From the IMG/VR virus record IMGVR_UViG_2703718846_000002: a stretch of 20,895 nt of DNA; one strand, given 5' to 3'. Source of the stretch: a virus (taxonomy: Duplodnaviria > Heunggongvirae > Uroviricota > Caudoviricetes). The translations under genes and the position numbers were made by a program. Of the stretch, positions 8,804-18,276 are shown one piece after another. Each line of letters begins with the position of its first letter. Position 1 is the stretch's first letter. The notes under the pieces were generated by a model. That model had not been told where the DNA came from. It was given only the letters and a program-made list of their open reading frames with translations, and did not search any database.

Positions 8804-9103
8804 AAAAATTCCTTAATACTGATAACTTGGCGCACTATACACACGTTCCTGAAGAAAGCTATAGTTTTTTGATGGGGTTGAAGATGGCTGGATGTCTAAA
8901 ATAAACATTGCTTCATATGTTCAACTATGCGTTAATGATTGCGTCGGTTTGAAGAACAGACGATATACGAAGTAGTTTACTAAAGCAGTTCTCATTTCAG
9001 GTGTTATTCACTTATTCCTTCTTTGAGTCTCTCCAATTAAGTACGAAGTCGTTTCTGTTATGCAAACCATTTATGCCGAAAGGCTCAAGTTAAGGAATGT
9101 AGA

Positions 9104-9319
9104 ATGTCAAATAAAATGACTGGTTTAGTAAAATGGTTTAACGCTGATAAAGGTTTCGGCTTTATTTCTCCTGTTGATGGTAGTAAAGATGTGTTTGTGC
9201 ATTTTTCTGCGATTCAGAATGATAATTATCGAACCTTATTTGAAGGTCAAAAGGTTACCTTCTCTATAGAGAGTGGTGCTAAAGGTCCTGCAGCAGCAAA
9301 TGTCATCATTACTGATTAA
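9104..9319 (+). CDS. cspB: Cold-shock protein CspB
   Basis: 71-aa [70 protein letters not shown].... The 5' UTR carries a GCCGAAAGGC hairpin before the SD, as in cspA. Confidence 0.9.
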
Positions 9320-9600
9320 AATTCATCGCTCGTCTGTATACGATAACGAAGAAGGCTGATGCCTGAGTAGAGATACGGACAGAGTAGTGAATATTGGATC
9401 TCTTTAATAAAAAGTAAGGAGGTCCAATACATGAAACAATGGCTAGCATATTTGGCAAAATCTTAATCAGGAAAAGTATGCTAACCATTGTGGTGAAGTG
9501 CAGGTTTGCTGCATGAATAGTTTTACAGCAGAAGCTAACTGCTGGCATGGCAAAACAAAGTGCGTAAGTGGATGACTCCCACAAAAAGCACCACAATCTC

Positions 9601-11628: not shown

Positions 11629-11990
11629 GGTAATATTAAATCGGAACATTTACATCGCGGAATGTAAAATTTAAATAAAAAGGACTCTTCCATGAGCCAA
11701 AATTCCTGAAATCTTAAGGGTAAGATAAAAGGTCTTAATCAGAATGACACGTTTTATTAATAAATAAAGCTATTCTTTCATTGCTGTGTTTTTCTTTACA
11801 AAAGTAATCCTTGCTATGGGTGGTTAATCATGCGTTAATGGTGTTCTGGTTTGTTACAAATTTATCTGAAGCAGTCATTGTTATAATTTTATTATTTGTA
11901 CCTCTTGAGATTTCCTTGTTGGTTTTTCTCTCTGATATTTTTTTTCGGACCATTCTGCCCAAGGGCTAATTTCTTCAAAAGGTAATAATT

Positions 11991-12203
11991 ATGTCTAACA
12001 AAATGACTGGTTTAGTGAAATGGTTTAACCCTGAAAAAGGTTTTGGTTTCATCACGCCGAAAGATGGCAGCAAAGATGTGTTTGTCCATTTCTCAGCAAT
12101 TCAGAGCAACGATTTCAAAACATTAACTGAGAATCAGGAAGTTGAATTTGGTATTGAGAACGGACCTAAAGGTCCTGCCGCTGTTCATGTAGTGGCGCTT
12201 TGA
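11991..12203 (+). CDS. cspI: Cold-shock protein CspI
   Basis: 70-aa [73 protein letters not shown]. Confidence 0.9.
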
Positions 12204-12407
12204 GGTAGACAATATTACAAACCATATTCACTTTAGATGCCCGTGTTGTCATGGTTCCCAGTATAGAACATCATCTTTTGATGTTTCTGACATGAATCCT
12301 TTCGGGGCAAAATGTATCTTTTGTAAATCAATGATGATTACATTTGATAATATTTCACAATACTTAAATGCCAGCCGTCTGTCGTTGGATTTAAAAAAGT
12401 GAAAATG

Positions 12408-13974: not shown

Positions 13975-14290
13975 CAATTAATACGATACCTGCGTCATAA
14001 TTGATTATTTGACGTGGTTTGATGGCCTCCACGCACGTTGTGATATGTAGATGATAATCATTATCACTTTACGGGTCCTTTCCGGTGATCCGACAGGTTA
14101 CGGGGCGGCGACCTCGCGGGTTTTCGCTATTTATGAAAATTTTCCGGTTTAAGGTGTTTCCGTTCTTCTTCGTCGTAACTTAATGTTTTTATTTAAAATA
14201 CCCCCTGAAAAGAAAGGAAACGACAGGTGCTGAAAGCGGGCTTTTTGGCCTTTGTCGTTTCCTTTCTCTGTTTTTGTCCGTGGAATGAAC
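13975..14290 (+). other. Lambda-type cos site (cosQ-cosN-cosB) with the 12-nt cohesive-end sequence GGGCGGCGACCT at about 14103..14114
   Basis: Reads ...GATCCGACAGGTTACG GGGCGGCGACCT CGCGGGTTTTCGCTATTTATGAAAATTTTCCGG..., near-identical to the lambda cos junction as recalled, immediately upstream of the Nu1 start. Confidence 0.85.
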
Positions 14291-14291
14291 A

Positions 14292-14837
14292 ATGGAAGTC
14301 AACAAAAAGCAGCTGGCTGACATTTTCGGTGCGAGTATCCGTACCTTTCAGAACTGGCAGGAACAGGGAATGCCCGTTCTGCGAGGCGGTGGCAAGGGTA
14401 ATGAGGTGCTTTATGATTCTGCCGCCGTCATAAAATGGTATGCCGAAAGGGATGCTGAAATTGAGAACGAAAAGCTGCGCCGGGAGGTTGAAGAACTGCT
14501 GCAGGCCAGCGAGACAGATCTCCAGCCAGGGACTATTGAGTACGAACGCCATCGACTTACGCGTGCGCAGGCCGACGCACAGGAGCTGAAAAATGCCAGA
14601 GACTCCGCTGAAGTGGTGGAAACCGCATTCTGTACTTTCGTGCTGTCGCGGATCGCAGGTGAAATTGCCAGTATTCTCGACGGGATCCCCCTGTCGGTGC
14701 AGCGGCGTTTTCCGGAACTGGAAAACTGACATGTTGATTTCCTGAAACGGGATATCATCAAAGCCATGAACAAAGCAGCCGCGCTGGATGAACTGATACC
14801 GGGGTTGCTGAGTGAATATATCGAACAGTCAGGTTAA
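14292..14837 (+). pseudogene. nohA: Terminase small subunit Nu1 homolog interrupted by an in-frame TGA at 14727..14729
   Basis: 145-aa ORF MEVNKKQLADIFGASIRTFQNWQEQGMPVLRGGGKGNEVLYD... matches lambda Nu1. After the TGA the same frame continues [35 protein letters not shown] to a TAA, restoring a 181-codon Nu1. Confidence 0.8.
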
Positions 14838-17013
14838 CAGGCTGCGGCATTTTGTCCGCGCCGGGCTTCGCTCACTGTTCAGGCCGGAGCCACAGACCGC
14901 CGTTGAATGGGCGGATGCCAATTACTATCTCCCGAAAGAATCCGCATACCAGGAAGGGCGCTGGGAAACACTGCCCTTTCAGCGGGCCATCATGAATGCG
15001 ATGGGCAGCGACTACATCCGCGAGGTGAATGTGGTGAAGTCTGCCCGTGTTGGTTATTCCAAAATGCTGTTGGGTGTTTATGCCTACTTCATAGAGCATA
15101 AGCAGCGCAACACACTTATCTGGTTGCCGACGGATGGTGATGCCGAGAACTTTATGAAAACCCACGTTGAGCCGACCATCCGTGATATTCCTTCGCTGCT
15201 GGCGCTGGCCCCGTGGTATGGCAAAAAGCACCGGGATAACACGCTCACCATGAAGCGTTTCACCAATGGGCGTGGCTTCTGGTGCCTGGGCGGTAAAGCG
15301 GCAAAAAACTACCGTGAAAAGTCAGTGGATGTGGCGGGTTATGATGAACTTGCTGCCTTTGATGAGGATATTGAACAGGAAGGCTCTCCGACGTTCCTGG
15401 GCGATAAGCGTATTGAAGGCTCTGTCTGGCCAAAATCCATCCGTGGCTCCACGCCCAAAGTGAGAGGCACCTGCCAGATTGAGCGTGCAGCCAGTGAATC
15501 CCCGCATTTTATGCGTTTTCATGTTGCCTGCCCGCACTGCGGGAAGGAGCAGTACCTTAAATTTGGCGACAAAGAGACGCCGTTTGGCCTCAAATGGATG
15601 CCGGATGATCCCTCCAGCGTGTTTTATCTCTGTGAGCATAATGCCTGCGTCATCCGTCAGCAGGACGGAACGTTTAAGCCAGCATACAGCAACAACATGG
15701 CCTGGTGTCTGTGGGATATGCTGACCCACCCGCGCTACGGCATGGGTAAACGTCTTGGTGCGGCAGATGTGGATAAATGGGCGCTGTATGTCATCGGCCA
15801 GTGTTGCGACCAGTCGGTGCCGGACGGTTTTGGCGGCACGGAGCCGCGCATCACCTGTAATGCCTGGCTGACCACACAGCGTAAGGCGTGGGATGTTCTC
15901 AGTGATTTCTGCTCGGCGATGCGCTGTATGCCGGTATGGAACGGGCAGACGCTGACGTTCGTGCAGGACCGACCATCAGATAAGGTGTGGACCTATAACC
16001 GCAGTAATGTGGTGATGCCGGATGATGGCGCGCCGTTCCGCTACAGCTTCAGCGCCCTGAAGGACCGCCATAATGCCGTTGAGGTGAACTGGATTGACCC
16101 GGATAACGGCTGGGAGACGGCGACAGAGCTTGTGGAGGACACGCAGGCCATTGCCCGTTACGGTCGTAACGTCACGAAGATGGATGCCTTTGGCTGTACC
16201 AGGCGGGGGCAGGCGCACCGAGCCGGGCTGTGGCTGATTAAAACGGAACTGCTGGAAACGCAGACCGTGGACTTCAGCGTGGGTGCCGAAGGGCTTCGCC
16301 ATGTACCAGGTGATGTCATTGAAATCTGTGATGATGACTATGCGGGGATCAGCATCGGCGGGCGCGTGCTGGCGGTGAACAGCCAGACGCGGACACTGAC
16401 GCTCGACCGTGAAATCACGCTGCCATCCTCCGGCACCACGCTGATAAGCCTGGTTGACGGGCAGGGTAATCCGGTGAGCGTGGAGGTCCAGTCCGTCACC
16501 GACGGCGTGAAGGTGAAAGTGAGCCGGGTTCCTGACGGCGTTGCCGAGTACAGCGTGTGGGGGCTGAAGCTGCCGACGCTGCGTCAGCGCCTGTTCCGCT
16601 GTGTGAGTATCCGTGAGAACGATGACGGTACGTATGCCATCACTGCCGTGCAGCATGTACCGGAGAAAGAAGCCATCGTGGATACCCATAGTGTTAGCGG
16701 TACGGCTGCTTCAGCCGGTGCACATACCCATTCGATGACATTTGTTTCAGGTGGTTCCAGTGGTGCTCCGGGAAGTGGATCACCTGATTATTCTAAATAC
16801 AGTGTTAACACTTCTTCTGCAGGCGCTCATACGCACTCTGTATCGGGTACTGCTGCAAGCGCAGGTGCACACGCACATACTGTCGGTATTGGTGCTCATA
16901 CGCACTCCGTTGCGATTGGTTCACATGGACATACCATCACCGTTAACGCTGCTGGTAACGCGGAAAACACCGTCAAAAACATCGCATTTAACTATATTGT
17001 GAGGCTTGCGTAA
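14812..17013 (+). pseudogene. stfQ: In-frame chimera: terminase large subunit A N-terminus, internal segment of tail-tip protein J, side-tail-fibre C-terminus
   Basis: Residues 1 to about 284 ([19 protein letters not shown] ... CVIRQQ) match lambda gpA. The next segment ([28 protein letters not shown] ... [10 protein letters not shown]) matches internal lambda J. The last ~110 aa (GAHTHS repeats ... [11 protein letters not shown]) match the side-tail-fibre C-terminus. Junctions lie near 15663 and 16683. Confidence 0.8.
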
Positions 17014-17588
17014 TGGCATTCAGAATGAGTGAACAACCACGGACCATAAAAATTTATAATCTGCTGGCCGGAACTAATGAATTTATTGGTGAAGGTGACG
17101 CATATATTCCGCCTCATACAGGTCTGCCAGCAAACAGTACCGATATTGCACCGCCAGATATTCCGGCAGGCTTCGTGGCTGTTTTCAACAGTGATGAGGC
17201 ATCGTGGCATCTCGTTGAAGATCATCGGGGTAAAACGGTTTATGACGTGGCTTCCGGCGACGCGTTATTTATTTCTGAACTCGGTCCGTTACCGGAAAAT
17301 GTTACCTGGTTATCGCCGGGAGGGGAATATCAGAAGTGGAACGGCACAGCCTGGGTGAAGGATACGGAAGCAGAAAAACTGTTCCGGATCCGGGAGGCGG
17401 AAGAAACAAAAAACAGCCTGATGCAGATAGCCAGTGAGCATATAGCGCCGCTTCAGGATGCTGTGGATCTGGAGATCGCAACGGAGGAAGAAACCTTGTT
17501 GCTGGAAGCCTGGAAAAAGTATCGGGTGTTGCTGAACCGTGTTGATACATCAACTGCACCGGATATTGAATGGCCAGCACTGCCGTAG
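17013..17588 (+). CDS. tfaQ: Tail fibre assembly protein
   Basis: 191-aa [42 protein letters not shown]...; its start overlaps the stop of the fibre remnant (TAATG). Confidence 0.85.
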
Positions 17589-17685
17589 GGTAAAACATAT
17601 AAATTCTATAATTAGATGTATCTCTCCATTTACGGCAAGGAAGGGGGCTTGGAAGACGTAAAGCATCTCACACCGAGATTATTTT

Positions 17686-18276
17686 TTATATGTCAGGTGT
17701 CTGAAGTTTTGCTTTGGCTCTTAAAATGGTTTGCCGCGAGGTTTTGAATTCCCGGGCAATGGCACTTATACTTACACCTGACTTAATTCGTTCGAATACC
17801 ACCTGTTTCTGTTCTTCATTTAACACAGGTGGTCGACCAAAACGTTTCCCTGCGCCGCGGGCTCTTACTATCCCGGAATGAGTGCGTTCAAGTAAAAGGT
17901 CTCGTTCAAATTCAGCGACTGCTGAAATTACGTGCATCATCATTTTTCCTGTTGGACTGGTCAGGTCAATGCCCCCCAATGCTAAGCAATGCACTCTGAT
18001 ACCTGTTTCGGTCAGTTGTTCCACTGTTTTCCTGATATCCATTGCATTACAACCAAGGCGATCCAGTTTTGTCACAATCAATTGATCACCACATTTCAGG
18101 CGAGCAAGCAACCGGTTAAAACCAGGACGCTCACTGGTTGCTGCTGAGCCGCTAATGTGTTCTTCGATTATTTGCTGAGGTTTGATTTTAAAACCTGCAC
18201 TTTCGATTTCCCGGCGTTGATTTTCGGTGGTCTGATCCAGCGTTGATATCCGACAGTAAGCAAAAATTCGAGACAT
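17686..18276 (-). CDS. pinQ: Serine recombinase/DNA invertase Pin (Gin/Hin/Cin family)
   Basis: 196-aa [23 protein letters not shown]... with the catalytic Ser in the N-terminal RIS motif and a C-terminal HTH. Confidence 0.9.

Follow-up and report, generated by a model that had tools for sequence, protein, structure and literature searches.

The GxHxH motifs called His boxes in the fibre genes of lambdoid phages, P1, P2 and the T-even phages have reportedly been described by Sandmeier et al. (1992/1994) and Tetart et al. (1996/1998). Both the motif and its role as an exchange point are established, reportedly through the work of Sandmeier, Tetart and Bartual, and belong to already known biology. 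A codon-level comparison between boxes, however, was not found within the accessible texts on fibre His boxes.

The closest described system is the needle of T4 gp37, which is antiparallel and six-stranded (PMC9659904). In this needle (D11) residues 882-931 and 960-1009 form the stem, residues 932-959 are the tip insert, and seven irons held by pairs of histidines lie along the axis (PMC6957217). The distal architecture of the Ur-lambda Stf is the same as that of the T4 needle (PMC12617516). The gp38 adhesins of the T2/T6 type, in which glycine-rich motifs bound hypervariable segments (PMC3157838), resemble the locus described here insofar as hypervariable segments for receptor binding are flanked by short conserved motifs of small residues, at which recombination takes place. 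According to PMC3157838, which refers to Tetart 1996 and 1998, such recombination at conserved adhesin motifs is documented for T-even phages. The resemblance is an analogy only, as gp38 is an unrelated protein with an unrelated fold and has neither HxH motifs and iron nor an out-and-back needle.

The window, i.e. the whole stretch of 20,895 nucleotides that we analysed, carries a lambdoid prophage remnant of the Qin type, which adjoins ydfJ and contains nohA/Nu1, a chimeric ORF, tfaQ and pinQ. The chimeric ORF (14812-17013, plus strand) has 733 codons, and Pfam searches and alignments revealed its three components: the N-terminal part of the terminase gpA, a fragment of the tail tip gene J, and the last 109 codons of stf. 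Pfam assigns residues 47-285 to GpA_ATPase and residues 354-521 to Phage-tail_3. At the DNA level, window positions 14103-15665 align with lambda 1-1564 (cos, Nu1 and the start of A), positions 15663-16684 with lambda J 16284-17305, and positions 16682-17700 have 100% identity with E. coli 2013C-4991 (locus L001), where they cover tfaQ and the 3′ end of an intact stf of 1036 codons. Since no Pfam model matches the Stf part at E<=0.01, its identification rests on the T4 gp37 tip (PDB 2XGF), which aligns over its full length with the C-terminal 213 residues of the intact allele (E 7.6e-88) and also matches the window's own 109 residues (E 2.2e-25). A reading made previously from the sequence alone (the sequence-only reading) had taken this region for the C-terminal remnant of a tail fibre, and it is borne out both by the perfect match to L001 and by the homology to gp37.

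The chimeric ORF is a product of prophage decay that reads open through both deletion junctions (15663-15665 and 16682-16684), and the J|Stf junction shows a 3-nt microhomology, ATA, at 16682-16684. A search of 5,426 complete E. coli genomes did not turn up this junction. An artificial origin of the window is ruled out all the same, because six NCBI draft assemblies carry exactly the same 733-residue protein; the ORF is therefore natural. In place of an intact functional fibre gene the window holds an stf remnant in frame with J and terminase fragments. The gene is dead, and its surviving 109 codons are identical in sequence to the intact allele. Since stf is here a dead in-frame fusion, nothing in the window is under current selection. 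Two other Qin remnants (L248 and L249) keep about 296 more bases of J, have stf joined at 16712, inside copy 1 of the peptide repeat, and each have a left-hand deletion of their own. The junctions of the window and of these two remnants suggest that one prophage has decayed by several independent and nested events.

Judged by the homology to 2XGF and the alignment with L001, the Stf-derived segment (16682-17013; this and all features below are on the plus strand) would form the distal part of a needle of the gp37/Stf type and, as far as the stop codon, the collar strand that returns from it. According to the sequence and the 2XGF alignment, its first element, unit 1 (16684-16731), belongs to the presumed outgoing arm of the stem and has lost its 5′ end to the deletion; what is left comprises the T-H of box 2, the nonapeptide SVSGTAASA and box 3 (GAHTH, 16717-16731), and it includes copy 1 of the peptide repeat. 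It is followed by a variable tip (head) insert of 30 residues (16732-16821), presumed to be the receptor-binding part, which aligns with the T4 gp37 tip 932-959 plus linker (PMC6957217) and is wholly different among the 16 tip classes introduced below. Unit 2 (16822-16878), assigned to the returning arm by its sequence and by alignment with T4 gp37 964-982, consists of box 4 (GAHTH, 16822-16836), again SVSGTAASA, and box 5 (GAHAH, 16864-16878), and holds copy 2 of the repeat. Further along the putative returning arm the sequence contains box 6 (GAHTH, 16891-16905) and box 7 (GSHGH, 16918-16932) at a spacing of nine residues. Hence GxHxH/HxH motifs stand on both sides of the variable insert. 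Of the seven HxH motifs in the intact allele (residues 894, 926, 940, 975, 989, 998 and 1007), the window retains half of box 2 and boxes 3-7. A 15-residue C-terminal motif is found in 212 of 243 related loci.

Directly downstream of the stf segment lies a gene of the Tfa/gp38 type, tfaQ (17013-17588), which encodes a tail-fibre assembly chaperone of the kind that accompanies gp37/Stf-type tips (Pfam Caudo_TAP, E 2.4e-43; annotated as tfaQ in matching genomes). Rfam places IS009, a candidate small RNA family, within tfaQ (17356-17554). Farther upstream in the prophage it detects two thermoregulator leaders of the cspA type (8943-9335 and 11845-12230); all three matches exceed their gathering scores.

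The sequence-only reading had drawn attention to a 13-residue peptide that occurs twice about 50 residues apart, with nine of thirteen codons different and three serines switched between the AGY and TCN families. Translation confirmed each of these statements. The copies occupy 16687-16725 and 16834-16872, their starts being 49 residues (147 nt) apart. Copy 1 is encoded by cat agt gtt agc ggt acg gct gct tca gcc ggt gca cat and copy 2 by cac tct gta tcg ggt act gct gca agc gca ggt gca cac; 14 of the 39 bases differ, every one of the nine codon differences is synonymous, and all three serine codons change family between the copies. A preceding Thr common to both (ACC vs ACG) extends the identity to 14 residues in the window (16684-16725 and 16831-16872), and in the intact allele L001 it reaches 17 residues. 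The additional GAHxH units mentioned in the same reading are likewise present, namely GAHTHS at 16717, GAHAHT at 16864, GAHTHS at 16891 and GSHGHT at 16918. When the 109-residue segment was shuffled 2000 times, the longest exact peptide repeat had a mean length of 3.5 and a maximum of 7 residues, compared with 14 in the actual sequence, and the number of exact 13-mers expected by chance is 2e-9. The peptide repeat is therefore real and far beyond chance. It is not a DNA repeat: neither of two DNA repeat tools reported copies 1 and 2, which rules out this possibility. A greater DNA likeness than that of the two long peptide copies is seen between boxes 4 (16822-16841) and 6 (16891-16910), both encoding GAHTHSV, which have 18 of 20 bases in common, 14 of them consecutive, at a distance of 69 nt.

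We mapped the 2XGF alignment to T4 numbering, which proved consistent with over ten residues that PMC6957217 names. Unit 1, made up of box 2, nine residues and box 3, lies over gp37 913-931, where the outgoing arm ends; the part left in the window covers about 916-931. Unit 2, with box 4, nine residues and box 5, lies over gp37 964-982, where the returning arm starts. In T4, contacts are described between G921 and F970 of another subunit and between G964 and H929 (PMC6957217). These positions map to the Gly of unit 1 and the Val of unit 2, and to the Gly of box 4 and the His of box 3, respectively. As the T4 contacts join unit 1 to unit 2, the two copies would be partner arms of one stretch of the needle. 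T4 gp37 and the intact allele agree in having seven HxH motifs, box spacings of 14 and nine residues and a chaperone gene downstream, and in both the collar is followed by the outgoing stem, the tip, the returning stem and again the collar. Unlike in this allele, in which the units are identical over 17 residues, only about half of the positions agree between the T4 units GGHTHSGSGSTSTNGEHSH and GNHSHTFSFGTSSAGDHSH, so that the structural roles given here to single residues are inferred from a relative whose own units are only about half alike. Moreover, the tip insert is unrelated to that of T4, and the window has merely the last 109 codons, as a dead fusion. Iron binding, trimeric packing and the outgoing and returning assignment are likewise predicted for this allele by homology.

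Is the DNA of the two copies more different than it needs to be? As a null model, synonymous codons were drawn at random from the gene's own codon usage. Four of the 13 codons are identical between the copies, compared with 3.9 expected from such draws, and 14 bases differ compared with 11.4 expected (P 0.19); for the three serine family switches P is 0.076. By the method of Nei and Gojobori, pS amounts to 0.71-0.75, which is the saturation limit, while pN is 0.03 when the serine codons are left out. The notion of "deliberately different DNA" put forward in the sequence-only reading is thus not supported, as the codon differences are what two independent synonymous draws would give. Its other suggestion, selection on the peptide, fares better in view of the low pN compared with pS and because the same peptide occurs in both unit positions in seven of the 16 tip classes.

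For a comparative view, 240 related loci were fetched, of which 172 contain both units; they represent 59 distinct alleles in 16 tip classes. Codon fractions were counted at positions with the same residue. Between unit 1 and unit 2 the fraction of identical codons is 0.386 within a gene and 0.332 between genes, the random expectation being 0.34. Avoidance of repeat-mediated deletion, which had been offered as the force behind the pattern, finds no support in these values. Orthologous copies agree in 0.385 (unit 1) and 0.459 (unit 2) of their codons, and orthologues from different tip classes are close to saturation themselves. In 15 of the 16 classes the longest DNA run common to both units is as long as under random recoding, and in none is it significantly shorter. 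Per codon, copies taken from different genes differ by 0.866 nucleotides, compared with 0.78 under random recoding. The slight excess of base differences in both comparisons (14 vs 11.4 in the window) comes from the fixed difference in serine family, which we read as one inherited event.

This difference can be traced across the classes. The codon of Ser-6 is AGY in 12 of 13 copies of unit 1 and TCN in 11 of 12 copies of unit 2, and that of Ser-8 is AGY in 12 of 16 copies of unit 1 and TCN in 15 of 16 copies of unit 2. According to these counts, the serine codon families are inherited per unit. The family split is older than the diversification of the tips, and in the window it is counted only once. 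Position 6, the first switched serine site, is occupied by Thr, Ala, Asn or Gly in some classes, and such variants open single-base routes between the families (AGY-ACY-TCY), an ordinary pathway. Whereas unit 2 is almost invariant, unit 1 is more variable (SLSGSTGSAG, SISGTANSAG and others).

From these data it is reasonable to propose, and in our view highly probable, that the copies are the known His-box units of the gp37/Stf needle and that their codon differences reflect neutral drift under constraint. Of this, the data show the homology and the anatomy, as well as the saturation statistics and the codon families specific to each copy. In the mechanism that we envisage, the paired units, each composed of GxHxH, nine small residues and GxHxH, would be part of a gp37/Stf-type needle whose intact chain leads outward with unit 1, builds the variable tip for receptor binding and comes back with unit 2. 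In the trimer, six arms would pack round the axis, with each HxH motif from three chains coordinating one iron ion. The residues between the boxes would have to be small (G/A/S/T/V) and of exact length, which would put both arms under very strong purifying selection, and arms so constrained can retain one and the same peptide or converge on it. At the DNA level the units would have been separate since before the known tip alleles diversified, long enough for synonymous sites to drift to saturation. The codon differences, including the serine switches, would then be the neutral end state and involve no designed diversification. The same saturation erases the signal that could tell a duplication from an independent origin of the units.

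It might be argued that the DNA difference is kept by selection, since recombination between identical copies would delete the tip. The copies indeed have no run longer than 8 nt in common, which makes a homologous deletion of the tip unlikely, the three serines fall into different codon families at a P of 0.076, and the recombination at adhesin motifs that PMC3157838 reports for T-even phages with reference to Tetart (1996, 1998) lends the idea some plausibility. Every measure, however, coincides with the random-recoding null: synonymous divergence does not exceed the random level, whether counted in codons or in nucleotides, and the two copies of one gene differ no more than copies drawn from separate genes do. 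Furthermore, DNA-similar repeats do persist, as boxes 4 and 6 stay close together with their 14 common bases, and as seen in one homologue, L137 (IMGVR_UViG_3300045988_142235). In the translated locus of L137 the units start at protein positions 190 and 247, and they keep 22 consecutive identical nucleotides and the same codon at 13 of 17 positions (P about 0.0003 vs random recoding). Homologues with identical codons in both units were what the sequence-only reading had named as speaking against its pattern; L137 is nearly identical and comes close to this. Finally, serine families that are inherited per unit in 16 classes point to few old events and not to repeated diversification. Altogether, selected codon diversification seems very improbable to us. 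Other loci with shorter tblastn matches (mEp332, ev099 and 9g) were considered as deletions between the copies, but both units are present in each and only the tips differ, so this explanation was rejected.

L137 itself points to a recent intragenic conversion or duplication that persists in one lineage, and it raises the question of whether occasional gene conversion resets the units to one peptide, after which synonymous sites drift apart. Such concerted evolution would also suit class 8, in which 9 of 16 codons are identical and a 12-nt run is common to both units, and class 1, which has AGY at Ser-6 and Ser-8 in both. In most classes, including that of the window, the unit-specific serine families are nevertheless intact, which indicates that no conversion has taken place there since the classes diverged. 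Apparently conversion does happen, but as the explanation for the allele in the window it has little probability. An origin of the units from different DNA ancestors, or a repeated convergence of unit 1 on the well-packing peptide of unit 2, we regard as unlikely, albeit worth considering. Residual DNA similarity between the units is absent, the variable unit 1 equals the nearly invariant unit 2 in the seven classes mentioned, and one and the same unit-1 peptide is encoded with several serine-family configurations. On the other hand, the 19-residue architecture GxHxH-9-GxHxH is common to both units throughout the family, T4 included, so that duplication is the simplest origin, and the closely similar unit-1 codons of classes 0, 2 and 9 show that the identity is at least partly inherited. 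The finding is thus real but ordinary: the copies are old repeats under purifying selection, as known biology would have it. Beyond correct annotation it has little import, in that the repeat would mark the iron-binding stem of a well-studied receptor-binding module. A caution follows for similar cases: after synonymous sites have reached saturation, scrambled codons behind identical peptides call for no special mechanism, and the null to be used is random synonymous recoding, combined with a comparison of copies within and between genes.

The lambda Stf belongs to the same gene family and locus type (lom-stf-tfa) as that of the window, whereas its unit 1 and tip represent a different allele (class 10). 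Window positions 16864-17578 are 94% identical to lambda 21824-22538 (stf/tfa). The similarity to lambda stf/tfa sets in at 94% exactly from box 5 (16864), amounts to 77% over unit 2 and is absent upstream. In many E. coli alleles, too, DNA similarity to the window begins at boxes 4 and 5, which fits conserved motifs serving as exchange points. The His boxes thus appear, from these alignments, to be a mosaic boundary for stf/tfa similarity. As indicators of the sites at which tip cassettes are exchanged, the flanking His boxes are useful in host-range engineering.

The needle is built of length-matched modules. If the outgoing xDxGxK repeats and the His boxes before the tip are added up and one is subtracted, the result is the number of His boxes that follow the tip; this holds for 80 of 89 distinct sequences. 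Of the 19-residue units, 169 loci have both and 42 have neither, while one locus (L037) has a single unit. One could imagine "rung" modules (units 1 and 2, or xDxGTK repeats against the His boxes spaced by nine residues) that are gained or lost on both arms together, and whose stable inheritance may need partner arms without DNA homology, although we give this idea only a slim chance. If it were true, codon divergence would be a precondition for the persistence of an allele, even though it is statistically indistinguishable from drift.

Among the related loci, thirteen genome contigs (L170-L180, L182 and L218) are 99.9-100% identical to laboratory lambda 20936-22270, while being labelled as Chromatium, Leeuwenhoekiella, Pseudomonas, Neobacillus, Paenibacillus, Shewanella, Kitasatospora, Bradyrhizobium and others. 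Several of them have a length of about 48.4-48.5 kb and low coverage. These contigs are contaminations with lambda DNA.
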